From Candidatus Nomurabacteria bacterium (GTDB lineage Bacteria > Patescibacteriota > Minisyncoccia > Phycocordibacterales > UBA918): a DNA stretch of 64,000 nt. The position numbers and the translations under genes were made by a program. Shown in pieces: positions 4,966 through 48,689 of this stretch. The DNA is taken from assembly GCA_020632015.1 (NCBI GenBank), contig JACKGI010000001.1, forward strand, positions 23,574 through 87,573. Reading direction: 5' to 3'. The notes under the pieces were generated by a model, which ran no database searches, had not been told where the DNA came from, and was given only the letters and a program-made list of their open reading frames with translations. Within the stretch, counting starts at the first letter, position 1, and the number at the start of each line of letters is the position of its first letter.

Positions 4966-6195
4966 TTAACTCATTCCATCTGAGATCGAGTAAATCGGAG
5001 CAATCAAGGCGAGAGCGAAAAAACCAACACCTCCACCAATCACAACCATAAGTAGCGGTTCAATAATAGTTGAGAGGTCTTTAGTCTTTCTCTCTACTTC
5101 TGTTTCATAAAATATAGCCAACTCACCAAGCATACCGGCAATCTGCCCAGTTTCTTCTCCTACCAAAATCATTTCTCCTACCAAAACTGGGTACAAATCT
5201 TTTCGCTCAATAAAAACTTCAGATAGAGCAGTTCCCTTTTCTACTCGCTTAGCTGCTTCACGGAGAATTTCTTTGTAAAAAGTATTTTGCAAAACTTCTT
5301 CGGTAATCTCAATTGATTGAATTACATCTACTCCAGAGTTCAGAAGTGAAGAAAGTGTTCTAGCTGTTCTGGCAGAATTAGTTTCTTTGGCCAAGGTACC
5401 AATCACTGGCAATCGTACAATCACCCAAGCGCTAGCGATCCTCCCCCATTTTGTTTTTAGGGCATAAATAAAACCTGAAATTGAAGCTATCATTCCACCA
5501 ATAACCAGAAATGTATGTGCCACCATAAAATCACTGGCTCCAATTAAAAATCTGGTTGTGATAGGAAGCTCCTTATCCATCCCTTTAAACACTCCAGTAA
5601 TTTGAGGCATTACATAAATCATCATAAGTACTGCAATCACCACCATCACAGTGATTACAATAGTGGGATAAATCATGGCTCCCTTAACTTTTTTAATCAA
5701 ATTATTTGAACGCTCCATTTGAATAGCCAATGTTTGGAGTGCTTCAGCTAAGTTACCACTTTCTTCTCCTGCCTTAATCATCGCTACATATAAATCATCA
5801 AATACATCAGGAAATTCTTTTAGCGATTCATAGAAAGGGTCACCTTGGTTGATTTTCTCTACCATCCTCTTAGTAACCCCTTTCATTTTTGGGTTTGTGC
5901 TCTGTCTTTCAATAACCGAAAGGGCTCGGGTAACAGTAAGACCAGCAGTAAGCATCGAACCAAGGTTTCTGGTCACCATCACCAACTCATCCGTCTTTAC
6001 TCGACTTAGGAAGAAGTTTATTTTCTCTACATTTAGAAGTCGTTTTATGTCGTACTTTGAAGATTCTTCAATCGAAGCGACGGTGTGACCTTGGTCTCGA
6101 GCTACCGCATATACACCAAAACGATCATCGGCAGTTACCGTATTTTTTACTGGCTTCCCTTCACTATCCTCACCAGTGTATGTAAAAGTTGGCAT
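4966..6195 (-). CDS. pilC: type IV pilus / type II secretion platform protein PilC/GspF
   Basis: 409 aa polytopic protein with two GspF-type repeats (e.g. LSSLLNSGVDVIQSIEI, YETEVERKTKDLSTIIEPLLMVVIGGGVG). It lies directly downstream of pilB. Confidence 0.9.
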   Translation of the reverse strand: MPTFTYTGEDSEGKPVKNTVTADDRFGVYAVARDQGHTVASIEESSKYDIKRLLNVEKINFFLSRVKTDELVMVTRNLGSMLTAGLTVTRALSVIERQSTNPKMKGVTKRMVEKINQGDPFYESLKEFPDVFDDLYVAMIKAGEESGNLAEALQTLAIQMERSNNLIKKVKGAMIYPTIVITVMVVIAVLMMIYVMPQITGVFKGMDKELPITTRFLIGASDFMVAHTFLVIGGMIASISGFIYALKTKWGRIASAWVIVRLPVIGTLAKETNSARTARTLSSLLNSGVDVIQSIEITEEVLQNTFYKEILREAAKRVEKGTALSEVFIERKDLYPVLVGEMILVGEETGQIAGMLGELAIFYETEVERKTKDLSTIIEPLLMVVIGGGVGFFALALIAPIYSISDGMS

Positions 6196-6198
6196 ATA

Positions 6199-7950
6199 TT
6201 ATTCGTTAATAACTCGTAATACTTCTTCGATACTTGTCAGACCTTGAGCAGCTTTAAAAATACCGTCCTCTATCATTGTGAGCATTCCCTCCTTTTGAGC
6301 CTGAGCCTGAATCTCATCGCCGGTTTTGTCAGACATCACCATTTCTTTTAGAGTCGGAGAAATTTCAAGAACTTCGTGAATACCCATTCTGCCCTTGTAG
6401 CCATCTTCAGTTTCACCCTTTTCTTTTGGATGATAGAAAGGAATATCGTTCCAAGTTGCATCTTTTTTAACGATTCCTTCTTCCTGCAGTGTCTTTAGTA
6501 CCAAATCGAGGTTTACCTTCTCAGCCAAATCATCTCTTTCGGCTTTAGTTAGAATGTACGGTAATTTATCGTCAGACAACTTACGAACCAGACGCTGACC
6601 AATAGCAACTCGTAGAGTAGAAACAAGCAAAAATGATTCCGCTCCCATATCAACCAAACGAGCAATTGTGCCTGACGCTGAGTTGGTGTGAATCGTCGCC
6701 AACACTAAGTGACCAGTAAGAGCAGCGTTGATGGCCAAACTCGCTGTCTCCTGATCACGAATTTCTCCCACCATGATTACGTCCGGATCCTGACGCATAA
6801 GCGACCGAAGACCAGCGGCAAACGTAAAACCAATGTCTGGTTTTACTTGAGATTGATTAACTCGAGCCATTTGGTACTCGATTGGATCTTCAATGGTAGA
6901 AATATTTACCTCAGGAGTATTTAAAAGGTCCAAGATTGTATAAAGTGTAGTTGATTTACCAGAACCAGTTGGACCTGTCACTAAGATAATTCCAGTAGTG
7001 GCTCGAGTGGCTCGATGAATTCGGTCTAAAGTACTGCCGTGAAAACCTATCCCTTCTAGTGAAAATCCACTTCGGTTTTCTCGCAAAAGACGCATCACGA
7101 CCTTCTCGCCAAAGAAGACTGGAAGCATAGAAACACGGAAGGCTACTTTCTGACCGTCCATCTCCATTTTGAATCGACCGTCTTGTGGTAGACGCTTTTG
7201 GTCGAGTTTTAGGTTAGAAAGAACCTTTAGTCTAGCCACGATACTACCAGCAGCGATTTTCGGAAGCTTCATCGCATCGTTCAAAATACCATCGATACGA
7301 TAACGCACGAGCACCTCTTCTTCCATTGGTTCTATATGAATATCTGAAGCTCCTTGAATAATGGCGTGTCTCAGTAGAGTGTCTACAATACGAACTACAG
7401 GCAAATCTTCTGCCGCCTTCTTCAAATCACTTTCACTCATTTGCTCCCCACCTTCTTCTTGCAACACCTTGAGCTGTGAAGCATCCTTCATGATAAGGTC
7501 GCCAAACTCATCTTTTAGTGTTTTTTGGTACTGACGCAATGCCCCACGCATAGAGTCTGTATCAGTCAGGCGTGGTTGGATTTTGAGTCCTACTTTCTTT
7601 TTGACAAAGTCGATAGCTGGTAAGTCAGCTGTATCTAGCATAGCCACCTCAAGAGTATCGTCAGTTTTCTTGTAAGCGATAATATTGTGAGTTCTGGCGA
7701 CAGGTTCAGGGATTAGGGTCAACACATCAAAATCAATCTTTTGTTCTTTTAGTGAAACAAAAGGAATCCCGAGAACATAGGATTCAACCCTACGCATATC
7801 ATCTTCGGTCATGTGACCATGAGCAATCAGAGCTTCACTTAAAGTGCGCTTTTCTTCTTTAGCGATTTTTTCAGCCGCAGCAATGTCGGACTTAGTTATA
7901 AGCCCTGCATCAAGGATAAAACGCTTGAGTTGTTCGTCTTGAATACGCAC
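6199..7950 (-). CDS. pilB: type IV pilus assembly ATPase PilB/GspE
   Basis: 583 aa with Walker A VTGPTGSGKSTT, a Walker B region IMVGEIRD, a His box ATIHTN and an N-terminal GspE_N-like region. Confidence 0.92.
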   Translation of the reverse strand: MRIQDEQLKRFILDAGLITKSDIAAAEKIAKEEKRTLSEALIAHGHMTEDDMRRVESYVLGIPFVSLKEQKIDFDVLTLIPEPVARTHNIIAYKKTDDTLEVAMLDTADLPAIDFVKKKVGLKIQPRLTDTDSMRGALRQYQKTLKDEFGDLIMKDASQLKVLQEEGGEQMSESDLKKAAEDLPVVRIVDTLLRHAIIQGASDIHIEPMEEEVLVRYRIDGILNDAMKLPKIAAGSIVARLKVLSNLKLDQKRLPQDGRFKMEMDGQKVAFRVSMLPVFFGEKVVMRLLRENRSGFSLEGIGFHGSTLDRIHRATRATTGIILVTGPTGSGKSTTLYTILDLLNTPEVNISTIEDPIEYQMARVNQSQVKPDIGFTFAAGLRSLMRQDPDVIMVGEIRDQETASLAINAALTGHLVLATIHTNSASGTIARLVDMGAESFLLVSTLRVAIGQRLVRKLSDDKLPYILTKAERDDLAEKVNLDLVLKTLQEEGIVKKDATWNDIPFYHPKEKGETEDGYKGRMGIHEVLEISPTLKEMVMSDKTGDEIQAQAQKEGMLTMIEDGIFKAAQGLTSIEEVLRVINE

Positions 7951-13048: not shown

Positions 13049-13312
13049 TTATACTGACGGGGCATACTTCAGTTCTTCAATTGTTATTTTTTCATATTCC
13101 TTTGGTATGTCTCCTCCGTAAAAGAACGACAGCTCCTTAAAGTTGGAAGCAATCACTACTTCGACTTTTTTTAAATCTAAATCTGGAAAATCCTTTTTAA
13201 GGTAATCGGCCATTAGCACAACGATGTGCGTAGGTATATTATCGCCAAAAGCAACAATTCTTATTTTAGGCAGACGACCTTTCTTTAAAACACACAGTGT
13301 TTTAATAAACAT
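13049..13312 (-). CDS. hypothetical protein (87 aa)
   Basis: An ORF with a GAGGA Shine-Dalgarno about 8 nt upstream of the ATG. I recognise no motif. Confidence 0.5.
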   Translation of the reverse strand: MFIKTLCVLKKGRLPKIRIVAFGDNIPTHIVVLMADYLKKDFPDLDLKKVEVVIASNFKELSFFYGGDIPKEYEKITIEELKYAPSV

Positions 13313-13367
13313 CTTCTTTTTCCTCTATTAGTGGTGAAGTGTTCAGAATTTACCACATGTACGACAA

Positions 13368-14552
13368 ATGTCTACTAAAGTGAACGTAGCGGTTGCAATT
13401 TCCTCAGAGTTTCGTACACTGGCGGGCACTATGTCACATTCACATTCTGTAGATTTTAAAAGCGCTTTTACAGTAGAGGAGTTGCCAGATTCACAAGTAA
13501 AAATTTCTGGCGAATTACCATACGCTGAATTACAAAGCGAACGTACTGCCGCTCTTGTAGCTCTCGGGAAAAACGTTGAGCTAGATGGCTTTCGAAAAGG
13601 TCATGTTCCAACCCCGGTACTAGAAAAACACCTTGGAGAGATGAACATCTTGGCAGAAATGGCCGAAAGAGCCATTTCACATGCTTACCCTCATATAGTA
13701 GAAGAGCACAAACTTGAAGTTATTGGTCACCCACAGATTGAAGTTAAGAAGATTGCTCCTGACAACCCTCTAGCTTTTAGTATTACTGTAGCTGTTGTAC
13801 CAACCTTCGAACTTCCTGACTACAAAGATATTGCAAAGGAAGCAAACAAGAATCGTCCAAGTGACGAGGTGACTGATGAGGAACTAGCAGAAAAGATAAA
13901 GGAAATTCAGAAGTCAAAGCAAGCATACGAGCGTATGCAAGAGTTGTCACAGAAAAATGCTGAGAACTCTGAAGATGGAAACACACCAGACTTACCCACT
14001 CCAGAAGAAGCTGAAGAAAAGCCACTTCCAGAACTAACTGATGAGTACGTAAAAACTCTCGGTCAGCCTGGCCAATTCGAAACTGTAGATGACTTTAAAG
14101 CCAAGCTTCGTGAACACTTAGAAATTGAAAAGAAACAAGAAAATGTTGCTAAGCATAGAGCTGACATAACTGACGGAATCATCGACAAAACAACAATCAA
14201 CCTCCCACAAATCCTAATAGATTCTGAAATCAACCAAATGTTTGCCCAAATGCAGGAAGATTTGGACCGAGCAAACCTAAAGATGGATGACTACTTGTCT
14301 CACATCAAGAAGACTAAGGAAGAACTAAAAACTGAATGGACTCCTGCAGCCGAAAAGAGAGCAAAGCTTCAACTTGTCTTAAACGAAATTGCTAAAAAAG
14401 AAGAAATCGTACCAGATGCTACGAAAGTAGAAGAGCAAACAAAGGAGCTACTTGAGCGCTTCAAAGATGCCGACGAACACCGAGTAAGACTTTATGTCGC
14501 TTCTGTACTACTGAATGAAGAAGTGATGAAGTCGTTAGAAGGATTGGAATAA
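13368..14552 (+). CDS. tig: trigger factor lacking the FKBP/PPIase domain
   Basis: It has the N-terminal ribosome-binding domain with the GFRKGHVP signature. The C-terminal arm domain starts at LPELTDEYVKTLG. Between them only an acidic linker of about 60 aa replaces the roughly 100-aa PPIase domain. The true start may be the internal ATG at about 13431 (MSHSHSV). Confidence 0.85.
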   Translation: MSTKVNVAVAISSEFRTLAGTMSHSHSVDFKSAFTVEELPDSQVKISGELPYAELQSERTAALVALGKNVELDGFRKGHVPTPVLEKHLGEMNILAEMAERAISHAYPHIVEEHKLEVIGHPQIEVKKIAPDNPLAFSITVAVVPTFELPDYKDIAKEANKNRPSDEVTDEELAEKIKEIQKSKQAYERMQELSQKNAENSEDGNTPDLPTPEEAEEKPLPELTDEYVKTLGQPGQFETVDDFKAKLREHLEIEKKQENVAKHRADITDGIIDKTTINLPQILIDSEINQMFAQMQEDLDRANLKMDDYLSHIKKTKEELKTEWTPAAEKRAKLQLVLNEIAKKEEIVPDATKVEEQTKELLERFKDADEHRVRLYVASVLLNEEVMKSLEGLE

Positions 14553-14580
14553 GTACTAAACAAACCTAAAAACAAAATTA

Positions 14581-14612
14581 GCGCTATCCCTTTTGGGATT
14601 GCGCTATTTTTA
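14581..14612 (+). terminator. rho-independent terminator after tig
   Basis: GCGCTATCCC, loop TTTT, GGGATTGCGC (one mismatch), followed by TATTTTTA. Confidence 0.7.
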
Positions 14613-14638
14613 TGTTTATGATTTCACTTTCCATCTCT

Positions 14639-14707
14639 TTGAAGATTCGATCCTAGATTCAAATCCTCAAAAGATAGGGCGAGGAGGAGTAAACACTCAA
14701 CTCGCCC
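14639..14707 (-). repeat. two-hairpin structured repeat, copy 1
   Basis: About 90% identical to 16038-16113. Hairpin A is GGGCGAG (14677-14683) paired with CTCGCCC (14701-14707) around a 17-nt loop. Hairpin B is TTGAAGATTCGA (14639-14650) paired with TTCAAATCCTCAA (14658-14670). It lies 188 nt downstream (minus sense) of the 14896 ORF stop. Confidence 0.7.
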
Positions 14708-14895
14708 AGGTAACCACGTACCACGCCCGGTTTACGGCGGAATAGTCTAAGCATATCTATTCATGAGCTTTGATGAGGGTTTCAGTCTTTTATACCTCCC
14801 ATCTCACCTGTATGTCGTTTATCGCTGTCGTCATGCTTTCGCAAAGCATGACCGCTCACCGTCACCAGATATCCTTGTTAATTTATTACACGCAG

Positions 14896-15558
14896 TCAGA
14901 CCAAGGTCTGCGTGGGATTGATGTCCGGGAGACTCATCTCAAACTCCTTGAAGAAGGCCGTAATTCTCTCAGATGTAAAGAGAGAGGGCTCGACTTGGAG
15001 TTCCAGTTTCTTTTCCTCCTCATATATATAAGCATCGTGTCCATAGTAACCTGACCTACTATTAACAGAATCAAAACGCTTACGATAATATGAGACATCT
15101 AAGAAACAACCGCTAGGATCCTTGTCAGTAACCAAATATACAGCATAGTATTGGTTAAGGACTTCCCTGCGATAGACACCACCTGAGCCTGAGCTCATGT
15201 TGCGGTCTTCCCAAACTCGACTAATGCTAACCATGATCTTAGTCAATTCCCAGTTTTTCAACTGGTCATTACGTCGATCAAACTGGTCAGTGATCACTCG
15301 TCTATCAATCTCCTGCCGCTTACCTCCACTTGTCACAGCGTAGAGGACCACACTTTTCGCCAATCCACCCGTAGAGCCATAATTGCTTTCTCGGGTCATG
15401 ACGTATGTGGTGTCGTTGTACGGGACATGAACCATGTCCAGTACATTTGACCAAGCAGCCAACTCCGTATGTCCATAGACTTTGCCAGCGGCATCTGTGG
15501 GAGTATACGTGTTGTACTCAAAACTCTTTTTGATATTGTCCATGGTAATCTCCCACAC
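14896..15558 (-). CDS. hypothetical protein, islet gene A (215-220 aa)
   Basis: A long ORF. The ATG at 15543 is preceded by GGGAG with a 6-nt spacing, so it is more plausible than the GTG at 15558. I recognise no family motif. Confidence 0.65.
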   Translation of the reverse strand: MWEITMDNIKKSFEYNTYTPTDAAGKVYGHTELAAWSNVLDMVHVPYNDTTYVMTRESNYGSTGGLAKSVVLYAVTSGGKRQEIDRRVITDQFDRRNDQLKNWELTKIMVSISRVWEDRNMSSGSGGVYRREVLNQYYAVYLVTDKDPSGCFLDVSYYRKRFDSVNSRSGYYGHDAYIYEEEKKLELQVEPSLFTSERITAFFKEFEMSLPDINPTQTLV

Positions 15559-15598
15559 CTTACTTTCGTTACTCTTATGAGTCGATCAAGTGGTGCTC

Positions 15599-15649
15599 CT
15601 GTATTCAGGAAAGAAAGTATCAATTCGACACACTCTTTCCTGAATACAG
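15599..15649. promoter_or_regulatory. 16-bp perfect inverted repeat in the leader/promoter region of islet gene A
   Basis: CTGTATTCAGGAAAGA (15599-15614) and TCTTTCCTGAATACAG (15634-15649) are separated by 19 nt. The repeat lies 41-90 nt upstream of the gene A start. Confidence 0.6.
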
Positions 15650-15955
15650 TCATGGACTTTGTAAAGAACTTTTGTTTCGCTCTTTTGAGCTCATCAGGAC
15701 AAGTACACACTTGCCTACAAAGGAGAGTTTTGCGAGGTCTCCGGCTCGGCCTCATCCCGAAGGATATGAGGACTTTGTGTAAAAGAGAGATGTCACTGCA
15801 GTGACTTTAATGATCAAATAGATATGCACCCTGAAAGGTGGATCCATTCAATACATTTGGGCACGCCTCCGTCGAGGTCAACAATGAGCCTAACCATTGT
15901 TGATATGTGCTTTTGGATGAAGTGCCCTTCATCATCGGCTTACAGGTAATCTCTC

Positions 15956-16020
15956 AAATCACCCGCACAAACATAAGCATTTGTATAAACACACATATTT
16001 GTGCGGGTGATTTATTTTTA
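15956..16020 (+). terminator. long hairpin followed by a T-tract (plus-strand terminator-like)
   Basis: AAATCACCCGCACAAA (15956-15971) pairs with TTTGTGCGGGTGATTT (15998-16013) around a 26-nt loop, followed by TATTTTTA. Confidence 0.55.
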
Positions 16021-16037
16021 AAGAACAAACTATCATG

Positions 16038-16113
16038 TTGAAGATTCGAACCATGTTTACTGTTTCAAATCCTCAAAAGATAGGACGAGGAGTAGTAAAC
16101 ACTCAACTCGTCC
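16038..16113 (-). repeat. two-hairpin structured repeat, copy 2
   Basis: Hairpin A is GGACGAG (16083-16089) paired with CTCGTCC (16107-16113). Both arms are changed relative to copy 1, and pairing is kept. Hairpin B is 16038-16050 paired with 16064-16076. It starts 12 nt after the stop of the 81-aa ORF (minus sense). Confidence 0.7.
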
Positions 16114-16125
16114 AAAAAGTACTGC

Positions 16126-16371
16126 CTATGGTCCCTTACAAGGAATTCCTCTTTTTAGAAGGAAATCCTTGAGACCTTCGTGAGCAAAACTTTTGACAAC
16201 ACCCACTTCTATTACCTCAAACCACATTGCGTGAACATATGGGCAAGGATTAGTCAGCGAGAATCTCATATCAAGCTCTTCTGCGAGACTTTCTGCACGA
16301 GACAGATCGTCTTCTAAAGCTATGATATCTGTACCAGTGCCGAACCCTCTGTACGCAACTGCATATTTCAT
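16126..16371 (-). CDS. hypothetical protein, islet gene B (81 aa)
   Basis: An ORF with an AGGAGA Shine-Dalgarno 5 nt upstream of the ATG. No recognisable motif. Confidence 0.6.
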   Translation of the reverse strand: MKYAVAYRGFGTGTDIIALEDDLSRAESLAEELDMRFSLTNPCPYVHAMWFEVIEVGVVKSFAHEGLKDFLLKRGIPCKGP

Positions 16372-16621
16372 GTCATTCTCCTACCCACAGAAACCCGAGG
16401 CGCGGTTGCGAAATATTCGCGGTGTTTGTTTCGATGTACTGAATGAACTGTGCAAGATAATACACGAGACTTTACACTTTGTCAATATTACTGTCTATCT
16501 TTATGACGTTATATGCTGTTATTATTGCCAATTTAGCCTTATTTATATGGATTTATGATAAAACTGTTTTGAATTTGTCAAAATTATTGACTATTTTATT
16601 AGAGTATGAAACAATAAGCAC

Positions 16622-17407
16622 ATGGATGACATAATCAAGCAACTAAAGAATCTGAACCTGACTGACAAAGAGGCCCGGGTGTACCTTACCCTACTTGAGC
16701 TAGGGCCTTCTACTCCATACAAAATCGCCAAGCGTTCTAGACTTAAGCGCCCTACCGCTTATGTGATAGCAGAAGAATTGGTTGAAAAAGGTTTGATTAT
16801 CCAAGTGACAGGAGAAAAAAATAAGCTTTATATAGCCCGTTCCCCCGAGGCCTATTTTGAAGACGCCGAGGAAAGACTCTCAAACGCTAAGAAAATACTC
16901 CCAGAATTGCTTGCTTTACAAAAGAAAACTAGTGAAAAACCAACGATTCTATACTTCGAAGGCACTGACGGTATTAAGCAGGCCTATGATTATAGACTTA
17001 AGGAATTTCACAACAAAGAAATTGTTGGTTTTTTTGCTCGAGGTACCGAAATCTCAGACGACCTGACTGAAAATGTGTTTTTACCTTGGAATGATTACAA
17101 GAAAGAACACAACATTAACGTCCGTGGCTTTACAACAGATGACGCCAGTCTGCAGGTATATGAGCAATACTTCAGCACATCTGACGGAGACGGCAAAATT
17201 CTGGCTCGTTTCTTGCCCGAAAGCCTTTACACTGCCGATACTTCCTTCGAAATCTTCGATTGGGGAGTTCGTATCGTTATTATGGACTCAAAACAAGCCC
17301 TAATTATGGAAAGTGAAAAATTCGCGCATGCCATGAAAGAAATCTTCGAGTTATTGTGGTCAAAGACTGAAGGAGAGTTTAATAAGCCAAAGAAAATTAA
17401 AATTTAA
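16622..17407 (+). CDS. TrmB-family transcriptional regulator
   Basis: 261 aa with the N-terminal winged-HTH typical of TrmB (LTDKEARVYLTLLELGPSTPYKIAKRSRLKRPTAYVIAEELVEKGLI) and a TrmB-like C-terminal domain. Confidence 0.8.
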   Translation: MDDIIKQLKNLNLTDKEARVYLTLLELGPSTPYKIAKRSRLKRPTAYVIAEELVEKGLIIQVTGEKNKLYIARSPEAYFEDAEERLSNAKKILPELLALQKKTSEKPTILYFEGTDGIKQAYDYRLKEFHNKEIVGFFARGTEISDDLTENVFLPWNDYKKEHNINVRGFTTDDASLQVYEQYFSTSDGDGKILARFLPESLYTADTSFEIFDWGVRIVIMDSKQALIMESEKFAHAMKEIFELLWSKTEGEFNKPKKIKI

Positions 17408-17437
17408 TAATTATCAAAATAACCATAAAAATAAAGG

Positions 17438-17470
17438 CGGTGTGGTCCCAAGGGACCACACCGGTTTTTT
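17438..17470. terminator. bidirectional terminator
   Basis: CGGTGTGGTCCC pairs with GGGACCACACCG, followed by TTTTTT. An A-rich tract lies upstream. It sits between convergent genes. Confidence 0.8.
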
Positions 17471-17478
17471 GACACTAC

Positions 17479-17940
17479 TCACCACATAAGATCAAACTCA
17501 TCTTCTGTTGAGTAGTATTCGGAGCTTTCATCGTACTCATCATCAACATCAATTAGTTGAGCAGTTTTTAAACCTGATTGAATAAGTGTTTCAATGGTAC
17601 CGTGATTATCGGGGCTCGTAATCACTATGAACACTCCGGTGCGTTTAGCTTTCTTTTCAAGACTACGAAGAAAGGCAATGATAGGTCCATTTCGGTCACC
17701 AGGTTTTGCTAATACCTTATTTTTAAATTGATGTGCATGCAGAATGTTATTACAAACCACGTCTGCACATTCTTGTGAAACACCGATGCCAGAAGTAATG
17801 ACTAATACTGGTGAGCCCTCGATAATTTTTCTTATCTTGACTGCAGTTTCTGCGGTTTCATAACGCGCACTATCGGTCATCTTACGCTTTCCTGACTCTG
17901 TGTAAGTTTCTCCGTAACATATGGTAAAGAACTTTGGCAT
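17479..17940 (-). CDS. hypothetical protein with acidic C-terminal tail
   Basis: 153 aa. There is a weak, unverified resemblance to SixA/histidine-phosphatase topology (FTICYGET where RHGE/D is expected; VLVITS; VFIVITSP). The tail is DVDDEYDESSEYYSTEDEFDLMW. Confidence 0.5.
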   Translation of the reverse strand: MPKFFTICYGETYTESGKRKMTDSARYETAETAVKIRKIIEGSPVLVITSGIGVSQECADVVCNNILHAHQFKNKVLAKPGDRNGPIIAFLRSLEKKAKRTGVFIVITSPDNHGTIETLIQSGLKTAQLIDVDDEYDESSEYYSTEDEFDLMW

Positions 17941-46828: not shown

Positions 46829-47806
46829 TTTAACACTCACATACTTTCTATGCAGGGAGTTACGTTTCCAAATTATACTTTCAATATAATAATGAAACAC
46901 TGAAACAGTAGCCAGAATAGAAAAATAAATTTTCGGATCAGTCACCGTCTCTCGGAAAAATACACCCATGAATACGGCAAAAGCAGGTACAAAAATAATA
47001 AGTGACATTGGAACTAGGGGAACTGCTTTATATATCAGATTATTTATTTTAAATTTATTTCTGTTAACTTCGTGAGAAATATAAAACATAAATGCTGGAA
47101 CATCATGCAAAAATCTAATTACAAGAATGGCCAAAAAAACATAACCAAAATTAGTTAGAGTAAAACTAGTTACAACCATTAGGTAGGTTAAAAAAACAAA
47201 AATCTTTCCTTGTAACTCTTTGGTTTTTTGTATAAGCAAATAACTCACTAAGCCAGCTAAGGCAAAGGTGACATTGAAAAGATATTGTGCAGACTTAATA
47301 ACAGAATCGAGCGCTCCCACCTGAACCGTAGTCAAATACATAATCGATACGGCAATTATCAAAGACCAGTTCCACCAAATGAACCAGTTATTTTTCGGAA
47401 CACCATACATAAGAGATATTCCGGTCTGCTGTCTTATAACGTGATACACCGTTGCAATCAGAAAAAGGGAAACGGCCAAGTTGTAATTAAAACTAATAAT
47501 AAACTGGAGGAGTAAAAATAATATTGGAAAAAAAATTATTAAATGTTTTTTATAGTGTGAAAAATATTCTTTATCAAAAAAACTAAATAAGCTGGCCAAT
47601 ATATGTGGCAAACCAAAAATTAAAAGGTAGAGGGGGAGATACAGAGTGTCGATACCCAAAACCGGAAGAAGGGCTTGGTCATTATAATTCCAGTCCCAAA
47701 AACCAAAAAAGGCAACTAGTGGCACAATTAAAAAAACGCTCATTATCCAAGACTTTTTAAGTACTAACATTTCTTGATTATTTTCCATGGAATTTTTTAT
47801 GAACAT
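46826..47806 (-). CDS. polytopic integral membrane protein with conserved His residues, unknown function
   Basis: About 310-326 aa and about 9 TM helices, with His-containing motifs YHVIRQQTG, FLHDVPAF and VFHYYIESIIWK. The track start overlaps the xer gene; an internal Met at about 47770 is a more likely start. Confidence 0.6.
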   Translation of the reverse strand: MFIKNSMENNQEMLVLKKSWIMSVFLIVPLVAFFGFWDWNYNDQALLPVLGIDTLYLPLYLLIFGLPHILASLFSFFDKEYFSHYKKHLIIFFPILFLLLQFIISFNYNLAVSLFLIATVYHVIRQQTGISLMYGVPKNNWFIWWNWSLIIAVSIMYLTTVQVGALDSVIKSAQYLFNVTFALAGLVSYLLIQKTKELQGKIFVFLTYLMVVTSFTLTNFGYVFLAILVIRFLHDVPAFMFYISHEVNRNKFKINNLIYKAVPLVPMSLIIFVPAFAVFMGVFFRETVTDPKIYFSILATVSVFHYYIESIIWKRNSLHRKYVSVK

Positions 47807-48689
47807 CTCGAAGATGCTTGTCAGTTACGTGTGTGTAAACTTGAGTTGTTCCGATATTAGCATGACCCAGAAGAGCTTGGACTGAACGCAAATCTGCACC
47901 GTTACTTAGAAGGTCTGTAGCAAAACTGTGTCGAATCACGTGAGGTGTTACCTTGCGAGTAATGCCAGCTTCTGTTGCGTATTTTTTAAGAAGTCTCTGT
48001 ACTGCTCTTGGCGAGAGTCGTAAGTCACCCCCATCATTAACTTTTCTTCCGTAACGAACGAACATCGCATCGTCCATATCTTTTCGATTTTTTAGATAAT
48101 CTTGAAGTGATGCTCTTGCAGTATCAGAAAGAAAAACAACTCGTACCTTATCTCCTTTTCCACGTACAGAAAATTCATCTCGAGTTAAATCAACATCATC
48201 AATTGAAAGTCCGCACAATTCAGAAATACGAAGTCCCGTCGAAAACAAAAGTTCCAAAATTGCTCTGTCTCTTTTGCCCTCAAGTGATTTTTTGTCTGGT
48301 GCATTCATTAGACGCCTAAGCTCTGTGGGGGAGATGAGGTCGAGTGAACGTTCGGGAACTTTGGCTAGCTCAATTCTTTCTGGATTCAGTGACTCGATTC
48401 CACGCTTACGCAAAAACTTGAGAAACGCTCGAAGAGCAATCAAGTAATAATTCTGAGTACGACGTTTCATGGGCTCCATCCGACCACCAACTTTCGTCCC
48501 AGGTTGTCGGTTTAAGTACAAACGAAATTCTCTAATCTGTTCCTCAGTTAAATCCTTTGGGAGTTTAACTTTAGCAAAATCAAAGAACCTCTCTAGATAT
48601 CTGTCATAGTTTTCTACAGTCTTCACACTCCTCCCCCTCTCGATTTCTAGGTACTCTAAAAATTGACGTTTCAGTTCTGCAAGTTGCAT
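47778..48689 (-). CDS. tyrosine recombinase, XerC/XerD family
   Basis: 303 aa with an N-terminal SAM-like domain and a catalytic domain containing RHSFATDLL and LLGHANIGTTQVYTHV. Confidence 0.9.
   Translation of the reverse strand: MQLAELKRQFLEYLEIERGRSVKTVENYDRYLERFFDFAKVKLPKDLTEEQIREFRLYLNRQPGTKVGGRMEPMKRRTQNYYLIALRAFLKFLRKRGIESLNPERIELAKVPERSLDLISPTELRRLMNAPDKKSLEGKRDRAILELLFSTGLRISELCGLSIDDVDLTRDEFSVRGKGDKVRVVFLSDTARASLQDYLKNRKDMDDAMFVRYGRKVNDGGDLRLSPRAVQRLLKKYATEAGITRKVTPHVIRHSFATDLLSNGADLRSVQALLGHANIGTTQVYTHVTDKHLRDVHKKFHGK

Follow-up and report, generated by a model that had tools for sequence, protein, structure and literature searches.

Small gene modules bounded by repeated recombination sites are known from Xer-dependent elements, such as IMEX at dif and the pdif modules of Acinetobacter plasmids, in which the site is restored upon tandem insertion and the substrate can be a single strand in folded form, as with the attP hairpin of CTX phage. 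Hairpin repeats that are transcribed at the 3' ends of genes are represented by the REP/BIME elements of enterobacteria and the Correia elements of Neisseria. These act as stabilisers of the mRNA upstream, as transcription terminators or as RNase III substrates; they are also recombination hot spots and occur in tens to hundreds of dispersed copies per genome. CPR bacteria (Patescibacteria) have tiny genomes with few recognised mobile elements. Integrons, whose published definition we used for the architectural comparison below, are reported to be absent from very small genomes (PMC4889954). Hammerhead ribozymes that flank single genes of a prophage transcript are believed to divide long RNAs into mRNAs of the length of one gene (PMC3088659). 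In the literature, we found no paper that connects CPR bacteria with integrons, attC sites or hammerheads as this locus does.

We analysed a 64-kb stretch of DNA (the window) from an uncultured Paceibacteria-type CPR bacterium, in which an initial annotation had pointed out two copies of a ~70-nt element. Both copies of this element, which we call E, are present on the minus strand where they had been placed, and they align in a 51-nt block (14658-14708 versus 16064-16114) with 94% identity and a 15-nt block (14639-14653 versus 16038-16052) with 93% identity. Between the two blocks, the apical loop of hairpin B carries a 7-nt indel, as had been described. Judging from sequence comparison, E is the junction module of a small, strain-variable array of swappable, co-oriented gene cassettes, the features of which are collected in Table 1.

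Table 1. Features of the cassette array and its borders, in window coordinates.
Feature	Position	Strand	Description
TrmB-family wHTH gene	16622..17407	+	divergent from array; proximal edge of the variable region
Array promoter candidate	16457..16485	-	TTGACA-17-TATTAT, 11/12 matches, upstream of 81-aa gene
81-aa gene	16126..16371	-	first array gene, near-ORFan; orthologues come first in the L015 and L017 arrays
Element E copy 2	16020..16113	-	internal junction, 81-aa cassette / 215-aa cassette
Hairpin A, copy 2	16083..16113	-	GGACGAG, 17-nt loop with inner 5-bp stem, CUCGUCC
Hairpin B, copy 2	16031..16082	-	5' arm UAUCUUUUGAGGAUUUGAA, loop 13 nt, 3' arm UUCGAAUCUUCAA..GAUA
3' motif, copy 2	16020..16030	-	GUUUGUUCUUU, conserved; absent from array-terminal copy 1
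Type III hammerhead ribozyme	15669..15723	-	in 480-nt leader of 215-aa gene
Conserved leader hairpin	15599..15649	-	23-nt arms, AAGUUCUUUACAAAG just before; homologous leaders in L144 and L150
215-aa gene	14896..15543	-	coding part of second cassette, near-ORFan, one 93%-identical relative
Structured-RNA module, ~200 nt	14708..14925	-	overlaps 215-aa stop codon, fills 188-nt 3' UTR, ends in hairpin A
Element E copy 1	14632..14707	-	array-terminal, after 215-aa unit
Hairpin A, copy 1	14677..14707	-	GGGCGAG..CUCGCCC
Hairpin B, copy 1	14632..14676	-	loop UCUAGGA
tig intrinsic terminator	14580..14611	+	convergent with array, distal edge; sequence AGCGCUAUCCCUUUUGGGAUUGCGCUAUUUUU

Each window copy of E consists of a GC-rich hairpin A that abuts a hairpin B of ~19 bp, with a linker of 0 nt between the two. 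The 17-nt loop of hairpin A, the compensatory change in its stem (GGGCGAG/CTCGCCC versus GGACGAG/CTCGTCC), the G-U pairs in hairpin B and the distances of 12 nt from the 81-aa stop codon and 188 nt from the 215-aa stop codon had all been read correctly from the sequence. The cores of the two copies had likewise been placed correctly, but their ends had been drawn too short, the two-hairpin spans being 14632-14707 and 16031-16113. Hairpin B is present as well, but not with the 11-13 bp stem first assigned to it: the UAUC right after hairpin A pairs with GAUA/GAUG, which brings the stem to ~19 bp. This stem has a 1-nt bulge, a single-base bulge being found in some copies of E. A 29-nt core pattern of E matches the window twice, against 0.00 matches expected from shuffles. 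The minus-strand folds of the two copies have energies of -31.3 and -30.6 kcal/mol (z of -5.0 and -6.0), and the plus-strand folds are weaker, at -26.1 and -20.7 kcal/mol (z of -4.1 and -3.0).

A covariance model of E scores copy 2 at 72.2 bits (E-value 6e-16) and copy 1 at 68.3 bits; across copies, it gives 65-88 bits on the sense strand versus about 22 bits on the antisense strand. Hairpin A ends directly before UAUC in 16 of the 16 printed distinct folded copies, which come from several species backgrounds, and a long hairpin B starting at this UAUC is found in the minimum free energy fold of all distinct copies but one (L069 3690). The spacing of the hairpin B arms differs among copies (loops of 4, 6, 7-8 or 13 nt; range 4-14 nt), and the boundaries of E are sharp and reproducible. 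In copy 2, UAUCUUUU lies directly 3' of hairpin A, and the two together look like a terminator. This reading of hairpin A had been offered in the initial annotation, and the pattern, a GC-rich stem-loop followed by the U-rich tract UAUCUUUU 3' of a gene, recurs in all 16 folded copies. A simple terminator scanner missed the hairpin A copies of the window, whose 17-nt loop exceeds its 8-nt limit. Copy 1 has no GUUCUUU motif; next to it come AAAGUGAAAUCAU and then the convergent tig terminator, which lies 30 nt from E and is unrelated to it. The terminal E copies of L015, L144 and L150 have the loop UCUAGGR and the flank UGAAAUCAU in common.

The initial annotation had proposed that further copies be collected and tested for covariation. 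In a MAFFT alignment of hairpin B, 93.4% of the cells are paired, compared with 38-61% in slid registers, and 5 pairs carry changes on both sides. A larger alignment, of related sequences and fitted to the model, comprises 16 distinct copies taken from contigs of relatives; in it, 92.8% of the cells are paired (36-62% in slid registers), changes on both sides occur at 8 of the 19 pairs (23 cells), and the covariation score was reached by 0 of 500 shuffles. One pair appears as G-C, C-G and A-U, and another changes from A-U to C-G. Stem A shows a comparable series across copies, from G-C through G-U to A-U; the hairpin A of the L015 orthologue, GGGCGAG/CUCGUCC, is a G-U intermediate of the copy-2 stem. 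Within hairpin B, 226 cells are Watson-Crick pairs, 43 are G-U and only 3 are A-C, indicating that the fold belongs to the gene-sense (minus) strand. The structure of hairpin B is selected on the sense strand, and the earlier claim of a selected, strand-specific structure rather than a plain DNA repeat holds on both counts, covariation and the excess of G-U over A-C. The wobble pairs and the strand asymmetry fit RNA folding and folding of the same strand as ssDNA equally well, since folded ssDNA tolerates G-T. Hairpin B also carries a fixed U-G wobble, and its 5' arm is invariant in sequence among type-1 copies. This invariance goes beyond the needs of pairing and could equally point to a recombinase or another protein that reads DNA.

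The array has the content 81-215 in the window (numbers give the length of each product), and 81-93-69-93'-75, 81''-69-93 or 81'-90 in other strains and species; thus, one first gene is followed by differing next cassettes. E is found at almost every array junction, and the array genes are all co-oriented with it. One sigma-70-like promoter candidate (11/12) lies upstream of the first array gene and is divergent from the TrmB-like gene; L144 and L150 have counterparts with the sequences TTGACA-17-TATTCT/TATTAT. The units measure 0.3-1.4 kb and include ORFan genes, small secreted or membrane proteins, a hammerhead ribozyme, unknown structured RNAs and a small protein family linked to CARF domains.

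Exchange between arrays is seen with the 69-aa cassette: over 366 nt, the L012 sequence matches that of the L040/L017 background at 100% identity, the flanks being only 73-78% identical between these two species. The identity begins exactly at the junction of hairpins A and B, at C|UAUCUUUU, and the same join is present in two independent assemblies. The hairpin B variant segregates with the gene that lies downstream of E, hairpin A with the one that lies upstream; both window copies have an 81-type hairpin A and differ in their hairpin B loops. Copy 2 of the window and the first E of L015 share hairpin B and diverge after GUUCUU, and other pairs of E diverge 5' of the hairpin B loop. The breakpoints are at no single fixed nucleotide, which fits homologous exchange. 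The initial annotation was right about a selected structure and its strand, but the idea of E as a private 3' UTR signal of two genes gives way to that of a repeated cassette-array junction. It had also considered that the copies might be ends of a recognised mobile element; the exchange breakpoints in E come close to this, yet no recognised mobile element matches.

We found essentially no homologues of the 81-aa and 215-aa proteins among 5.8 billion proteins. Comparison of the cassette proteins with Pfam, PHROGs and PADLOC was empty with the exception of one L069 cassette, which matches a small protein 'sometimes fused to CARF'. Within the clade, the TrmB-family gene belongs to the conserved core, and it is also present where no E was found. 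A neighbouring 153-aa protein with an HAH motif was considered as an HUH/IS200-like transposase and rejected: it has no Pfam, PHROG or PADLOC match and is not conserved beside the arrays of other genomes. The sole tyrosine recombinase in the 64 kb is encoded by an Xer-like, housekeeping-like gene at 47778-48689, 31 kb from the array. No recombinase adjoins the array in the window, L015, L144 or L150; in L069, an Xer orthologue is found at the distal array end.

The hammerhead in the leader of the 215-aa gene is predicted to cleave after A15716 (GUA|G). It has the core CUGAUGAG-CUCAAAAGAGC-GAAAC, a stem I of 7 bp, a stem III of 5 bp and the triplet GUA, and shows the features of type III, namely a CUGANGA...GAAA core, three stems of which I and II are closed, and an N-U-H triplet. 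Type III relatives with the same core number 20, from the window, L069, L150 and 17 viral contigs; their stems I differ in sequence and are fully paired over 6-7 bp, and H is never G. The score with Rfam RF00008 is only 23.4 bits, the gathering threshold being 48.5. Given its core and its relatives, we regard the hammerhead as a genuine, bona fide type III ribozyme. In L150, a hammerhead forms the junction between two units, which speaks for the use of RNA processing in these arrays. The structured-RNA module of ~200 nt at the other end of the 215-aa gene is conserved as well, with homologues in L056, L149, L147 and L150.

We also determined how widely E is distributed. Searches of the 64-kb window with nhmmer and the covariance model returned no third copy, the best other match scoring 15.5 bits (E-value 0.32). 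Among GTDB representatives, a 20-mer of E occurs only at this array locus, in two genomes. E is absent from the viral contigs of IMG/VR, where all 15 pattern matches are due to chance, and megablast of positions 13300-17500 against 50,697 phage records returned no match; on these two results, a phage or prophage origin of E was rejected. Four runs against Rfam 15, including a permissive mode, placed no family at its gathering threshold over E, in agreement with the earlier statement that it could not be assigned to a known family, and the sub-threshold matches are meaningless (e.g. SSRC38, 27.8 bits versus 80). ARAGORN found 4 tRNAs elsewhere in the window and none at E, which together with the Rfam result rules out a tRNA or tmRNA fragment or a tRNA-borne att site; the T-loop likeness of TTCAAATCC / TTCGAATC is superficial and comes without a T-stem. 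No promoter was detected by the scanner within the window copies of E, and a promoter inside E was rejected by eye as well, candidate -35/-10 pairs lying at inconstant spacing across a loop of varying length. An RNase III signature was found nowhere in the 64-kb window, which is a fraction of the genome.

On balance, and with slightly more confidence than doubt, we favour the explanation that E is an RNA terminator plus a processing or stability hairpin that insulates the cassettes, and that its invariant core doubles as the point of exchange. The array would be transcribed from one promoter that adjoins the conserved TrmB-like gene, with E after every unit. In the transcript, hairpin A and UAUCUUUU would stop or pause the upstream cistron and cap its 3' end, and hairpin B would give the downstream cistron a structure for processing and/or 5' protection, the leader of this cistron starting with a conserved GAUAnUUnGUUCUUU. 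Carrying its own RNA 'insulation', each cassette could then work in any position, and the hammerhead may do the same insulating job at another junction. At the level of DNA, the same 40-70 nt on both sides of a cassette would provide homology or a site for exchange, such that cassettes could be gained, lost, duplicated and passed between species at E repeats. We judge homologous recombination after DNA uptake more likely as the mechanism than a dedicated recombinase. Some points count against this explanation. Exchange that depends on RecA would have only a short homology, of 20-70 nt, to work with, and an efficient terminator at hairpin A, with no promoter in E, would leave downstream cassettes poorly expressed. 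As the U-tract UAUCUUUU is interrupted, read-through is plausible.

The resemblance of E to known RNA signals is partial. As in intrinsic terminators, the GC-rich stem of hairpin A has 6-10 bp, is directly followed by UAUCUUUU and lies 7-400 nt past a stop codon. Unlike in intrinsic terminators, the interrupted U-tract doubles as the 5' arm of a conserved 19-bp hairpin, and the whole is repeated in near-identical form behind unrelated genes. A long imperfect hairpin between the cistrons of one transcript is also a property of the RNase III hairpins of phage T7 early genes, and in L150 a hammerhead, the kind of ribozyme that flanks single genes in prophage transcripts (PMC3088659), occupies an equivalent junction. 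However, E has no similarity to known RNase III sites or to the ribozymes of Rfam, and processing at E is putative. An RNA element and nothing else, an unusual terminator or a 3'-end stability signal inherited with each gene, was the view of the initial annotation; the differences between arrays would then be ordinary indels independent of E. The presence of hairpin A and the U-tract in all copies and the covariation on the sense strand speak for it. We consider it improbable, since the identity of the interspecies cassette begins exactly at E, the two hairpins segregate with different neighbouring genes, the same cassettes occur in different orders, and E, with 2 copies in 64 kb, is found in the variable array alone, other terminators doing without it.

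A structure-specific recombination site that acts as folded ssDNA, like the integron attC site or the CTX-phage attP hairpin, is the main rival, a possible but unlikely one. Cassettes would be excised as circles with one E and go back into a resident E through a recombinase whose gene lies elsewhere, such as the single Xer-like tyrosine recombinase, and RNA effects of E would be secondary, if there are any. The layout is indeed that of integron arrays and CALIN, with one promoter feeding small ORFs of unknown function that share an orientation and mostly lack promoters of their own, a strand-specifically folded hairpin site after each ORF, sites that are chimeric between neighbours, and cassettes that vary in content and order and are shuffled, duplicated and common to different genomes. 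A breakpoint at the A|B junction of an identical interspecies cassette would suit such a site; the occurrence of the 81-type hairpin A twice with differing B loops is the outcome expected of a Campbell-type circle insertion, an invariant 5' arm beside a covarying stem is what a folded site read by a protein would look like, and strand asymmetry suits a single recombinogenic strand. The Xer orthologue in L069 points the same way. Xer modules, too, are small gene modules between repeated sites. In the window, however, the one Xer-like gene is 31 kb away, and no recombinase adjoins the array there or in the three other arrays named above. E also lacks the R'' (RYYYAAC) and R' (GTTRRRY) core sites of attC, for which reason we rejected its identity with an integron attC or CALIN; the pattern RYYYAAC-N40-130-GTTRRRY has no match on either strand of window positions 14500-16700, L012, the L069 array or L077. 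CALIN lack IntI by definition and still need attC sites, and a complete integron would have an IntI by the array, where we found no tyrosine-recombinase motif. Moreover, attC is one imperfect hairpin, has extrahelical bases and a central spacer that is left unpaired, is conserved in structure only and recombines at its 3' end, whereas E is two abutting hairpins of highly conserved sequence, has its exchange point at the A|B border or within the 5' arm of hairpin B, and resides in a CPR genome of roughly 1 Mb. Nor do the arms, 4-14 nt apart, resemble Xer/dif or lox-type cores; dif sites have a fixed 6-8 nt between ~11-nt inverted arms, and we recognised no dif-like 28-nt core among the E sites, which are all in direct orientation. 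Breakpoints at no one position and a U-tract that always follows hairpin A, for which a DNA site has no need, also argue against it. The proposal can be extended, doubtfully, to an undescribed IntI-independent, integron-like gene-capture system of CPR bacteria, in which circles with one two-hairpin site would be recognised in folded, single-stranded form by the Xer of the host or another enzyme and insert between hairpins A and B of a resident site; each would bring its own terminator and 5' hairpin and hence be expressed in any position, some cassettes being only a ribozyme or structured RNA. Far less probable is a double-stranded operator, an imperfect palindrome through which the TrmB-like wHTH protein or another dimeric protein would control each cassette. 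The TrmB-family gene is always beside the array, the arms form an inverted repeat, CTATCTTTTGA..TCAAAGAGATAG, and the 5' arm is invariant, but a dimer on B-DNA would not tolerate half-site spacing that varies by 10 nt, a fixed protein would not favour changes on both sides that keep complementarity, dsDNA is insensible to an asymmetry of 43 G-U against 3 A-C, and the TrmB-like core gene also occurs where no E was found. We give almost no credence to a duplication without function, be it tandem or segmental, or to a MITE-like repeat in decay, which is what two copies 1.4 kb apart and about 90% identical might suggest from the window. At least 16 distinct copies with compensatory changes exist in several species, and the covariation strongly disfavours such a repeat, as do the sharp boundaries. 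Unlike REP/BIME and Correia elements, E occurs in one array per genome and has no TA or other target duplication and no terminal inverted repeats; with 2 copies in the 64 kb, both in the array, a dispersed repeat of the REP/BIME, Correia or MITE kind is ruled out.

On the chromosome, this locus is a conserved hot spot that lies next to a core regulator. Its interchangeable units are bounded by one covarying, strand-specific two-hairpin module, and two species have at least one of these units in identical form. If E acts as RNA, it would be a naturally occurring 'insulator part' through which genes become portable inside an operon; if it is a recombination site, the array would be an independently evolved analogue of the integron. 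On either reading, the array is a concrete case of accessory-gene exchange among ultra-small symbionts, and the covariance model of E is a handle by which such arrays can be found in metagenomes. A metagenome scan with a 19-mer of E returned 80 loci, of which only about 8 are real and the remainder are due to chance; among the chance matches are L021 and L068, where the 19-mer comes after a tRNA and is complementary to the T-arm of that tRNA.

The two roughly 70-nt repeats proposed in the initial annotation are real: a 51-nt block (94% identical) and a 15-nt block (93%) flank a 7-nt loop indel, the repeat ends are sharp on both sides, and the 29-nt core pattern has two matches against 0.00 expected. 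No third copy was found within the 64-kb window. The two-hairpin minus-strand fold described for each copy was likewise recovered, at -31.3 and -30.6 kcal/mol (z = -5.0 and -6.0), and beats that of the plus strand. All of its reported details hold, except that the extent of hairpin B had been understated, as UAUC after hairpin A pairs with GAUA to give a stem of about 19 bp that abuts hairpin A with no linker. Copy 2 has an extra conserved 3' motif, GUUUGUUCUUU. We call this module E, and we conclude with high confidence, as a description, that it serves as the junction module in a mobile cassette array located at a hot spot beside a conserved TrmB-like gene.

The window is part of the chromosome of a CPR bacterium, with the gene order nusA, ppa, tig, two minus-strand genes (the cassette genes for 81-aa and 215-aa products), the TrmB-like gene, clpP, rny and hupA; the same locus is present in NCBI GCA_020428855.1, 'Candidatus Kaiserbacteria bacterium'. 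The TrmB-like gene has 213 homologues, and the region adjoining it is variable in every genome inspected. All array genes share the orientation of E, and a single strong sigma-70-like promoter (TTGACA-17-TATTAT) lies ahead of the first gene, an arrangement that can also be read in the sequences of two related contigs, L144 and L150. Just downstream of E copy 2 in the gene sense, an inverted repeat (19-nt arms, 95% complementary; 20-nt loop) opens the 215-aa cassette; on the plus strand, a T-run follows it.

Coordinates of E and associated features in the window and in related contigs (L handles)
Feature	Source	Position	Strand
E copy 1	window	14632-14707	minus
E copy 2	window	16020-16113	minus
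Array promoter	window	16485-16457	minus
Inverted repeat	window	15956-16013	
Type III hammerhead	window	15669-15723	minus
Leader module	window	15599-15675	minus
Leader module	L144	~5700-5800	minus
Leader module	L150	1735-1815	
3' UTR RNA candidate	window	14708-14925	minus
3' UTR candidate homologue	L056	530-800	
3' UTR candidate homologue	L149	5240-5515	
3' UTR candidate homologue	L147	3480-3760	
3' UTR candidate homologue	L150	2490-2660	
93-aa cassette, non-coding	L012	686-1100	
The same stretch	L077	1930-1520	minus
Part of that stretch	L150	1400-1480	
Unit without called gene	L150	2745-3010	
Second-type E	L069	4802	
106-aa cassette protein	L069	5326-5646	
Xer-like gene	window	47778-48689	minus
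Xer-like orthologue	L069	6752-7297	minus
Intein-bearing helicase	L147	8546-11581	
tRNA-linked 19-mer	L021	6560-6800	
tRNA-linked 19-mer	L068	~6800-6870	minus

Exact-protein look-ups for the products of 81 and 215 aa gave the window locus in several assemblies, plus one variant, L012, where other small genes (93 and 69 aa), each trailed by an E-type element, come after the same 81-aa gene. A 20-mer scan of GTDB species representatives placed E in only two other genomes, solely at this locus: L015 ('Ca. Nomurabacteria'), where TrmB is followed by 81' - E - 90-aa secreted protein - E - ... - tig, and L017, where it is followed by a diverged 81'' - E - 69-aa cassette as in L012. Of 80 loci from a 19-mer scan of JGI metagenomes, about 8 were real, and further arrays were reached through TrmB orthologues and the 215-aa protein's sole homologue; all relatives are metagenomic. 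With genes named by protein length and primes marking variants, the array orders are 81 - 215 - end (window), 81 - 93 - 69 - 93' - 75(TM) - end (L012/L077), 81'' - 69 - 93 (L040/L017), 81' - 90 - end (L015) and 87 - 90(93-like) - [hammerhead] - 215 - ORF-less unit - end (L150), and L069 has at least five units. The ORF-less unit, about 265 nt between an internal and the terminal E with a longest ORF of 19 codons, suggests that cassettes can be RNA-only. The sole cassette product with a family match is the L069 106-aa protein, which matches PADLOC 'Unk_01, unknown small protein, sometimes fused to CARF' (E = 3.5e-27) as well as two PHROGs, both of unknown function.

On the gene-sense strand, which is the minus strand in the window, a stop codon and 7-400 nt precede hairpin A, whose GC-rich 6-10 bp stem is mostly GGRYGAS/STCRYCC but also GCAGGAAC/GUUCCUGC and others. 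There follow the invariant (C)UAUCUUUUGAGGAUUU(G/C)AA, a 4-13 nt loop, the 3' arm (UUCG)AAUCYUCA, (AAGA)GAUA, nUUnGUUCUUU, a long leader or 20-40 nt, and the RBS with the next gene. Array-terminal copies (window copy 1, L015 E2, L150 E3; diverged in L144 and L077) have the loop UCUAGGR and flank UGAAAUCAU and are without GUUCUUU. A second, diverged type (UCUUUAUACAGUUUYUAA..UUAGAGAYU..GUUCYUU), found in L149 and L069, differs in its arm sequences and retains the fold.

This fold bears the marks of selection in a sample of 16-19 related copies from a few lineages. When 14 distinct copies were aligned with MAFFT, 93.4% of cells were paired, compared with 38-61% with slid partners; both sides had changed at 5 pairs, and the covariation score was reached by 0 of 500 shuffles. 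The stem A position for which a compensatory change had been claimed is A-U (4), G-C (2) or G-U (1) across copies. In a covariance-model alignment of 16 distinct copies, with the caveat that this alignment was itself fitted to that model, 92.8% of cells were paired and both sides had changed at 8 of 19 pairs (23 cells), one pair being G-C in 8 copies, C-G in 5 and A-U in 3. Stem B contains 226 Watson-Crick and 43 G-U cells but only 3 A-C cells, and one U-G is kept in 16/16 copies; the fold is therefore that of the gene-sense strand, either as RNA or as the same DNA strand when single-stranded.

Evidence for exchange comes from the 69-aa cassette, of which 366 nt are 100% identical between L040/L017 and L012, while the 81-aa gene and TrmB region of L040/L017 share only 73-78% identity with the window species. 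The identical stretch starts with the C preceding UAUCUUUU, at the junction of hairpins A and B. The L017 and L040 sequences come from independent assemblies and agree across 1046 nt, and we infer that a chimeric assembly is unlikely because only about 19 nt are common across the junction. The hairpin B variant tracks the downstream gene, with one B preceding the 69-aa gene behind two different upstream genes and likewise one B preceding the 93-aa gene, and hairpin A tracks the upstream gene. Breakpoints also occur elsewhere: window copy 2 and L015 E1 have a common hairpin B and diverge only past GUUCUU, and two units in L150 are joined by a hammerhead, not by E.

We lean, by a modest degree, towards a dual role for E, as an insulating RNA element in the transcript and an exchange point in DNA. 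In the transcript, hairpin A with its U-tract would act as a leaky terminator and 3' cap, and hairpin B would be a processing and/or 5'-protective helix, so that each cassette would be insulated; in DNA, exchange would take place at the repeated module, probably by homologous recombination. The main rival, a single-strand recombination site of attC-like or CTX-attP-like type, would use the same folded strand as DNA; we consider it improbable, the attC core sites being absent from E and no recombinase having been found flanking the array. Lesser rivals are an RNA-only element; an operator, of which the form of a duplex palindrome bound by protein is ruled out by the G-U/A-C asymmetry of stem B; and a functionless repeat.

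The array is functionally like an integron or CALIN as defined in PMC4889954, but the defining attC and IntI tests were negative, and it is thus not a member of that class. E is neither a dispersed repeat of the REP or Correia type nor a dif-type site. No tRNA or tmRNA was found at E, no Rfam family matched it even in permissive mode, it has no phage similarity, and no promoter-like site lies within it. We found no published description of such an element or array. We rate the cassette array as a known kind of system and its junction element as new, in a lineage not known to have such systems. The sole tyrosine recombinase in the window is an Xer-like gene 31 kb from the array, and a close orthologue lies immediately past the distal end of the L069 array.

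Other RNA features occur in these arrays. The leader of the 215-aa gene holds a type III hammerhead, CCUUUGUA|GGCAAGU-GUGU-ACUUGUC-CUGAUGAG-CUCAAAAGAGC-GAAAC-AAAAG, with an Rfam score of only 23.4 bits. Its core is identical in L069, L150 and, among 30 IMG/VR matches, most of the viral contigs examined; in related hammerheads stems I and III differ yet are fully paired, a GUH triplet is present, and the position is usually just 5' of an RBS and start codon. That hammerheads occupy equivalent places speaks for RNA processing as an element of the array design (PMC3088659). The leader module, (A)AGUUCUU(U/C)ACAAA and then a long hairpin CUGUAUUCAGGAAAGAGUGUGUC...UUUCUUUCCUGAAUACAG, is conserved; it lies behind the hammerhead in the window and L150 but straight after the promoter in L144; its GUUCUUU box also occurs 3' of hairpin B in internal E copies.

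A conserved structured-RNA candidate, without an Rfam entry, makes up the '188-nt 3' UTR' of the 215-aa gene. A hairpin CACGCAGACC..GGUCUGACUGCGUG spans the stop codon, boxes AUAAAAGACUGAAACCC and GAUAYGCUUAGACUA are present, and hairpin A lies at the end; RNAalifold on 4 sequences gave 34 pairs, 9 with compensatory changes. In other genomes the candidate trails unrelated genes, such as a radical-SAM gene in L147. About 400 nt of the 93-aa cassette are non-coding, hairpin-rich and partly kept in L150 (GGGGUUCUGAAAGAUCCUCGAAAGCAUAGACCAAG); no Rfam match was found for this stretch, which may be another structured RNA. In L021 and L068, an unrelated metagenome contig, two tRNA genes each have the same 19-mer, UAUCUUUUGAGGAUUUGAA, about 17 nt past CCA, and this is complementary to the T-arm of the tRNA itself (GGUUCAAAUCCUC); this is probably coincidental as regards E, though odd in itself. 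Finally, a UvrD-family helicase near the TrmB orthologue of L147 holds an intein (1011 aa vs 650 aa in L149).
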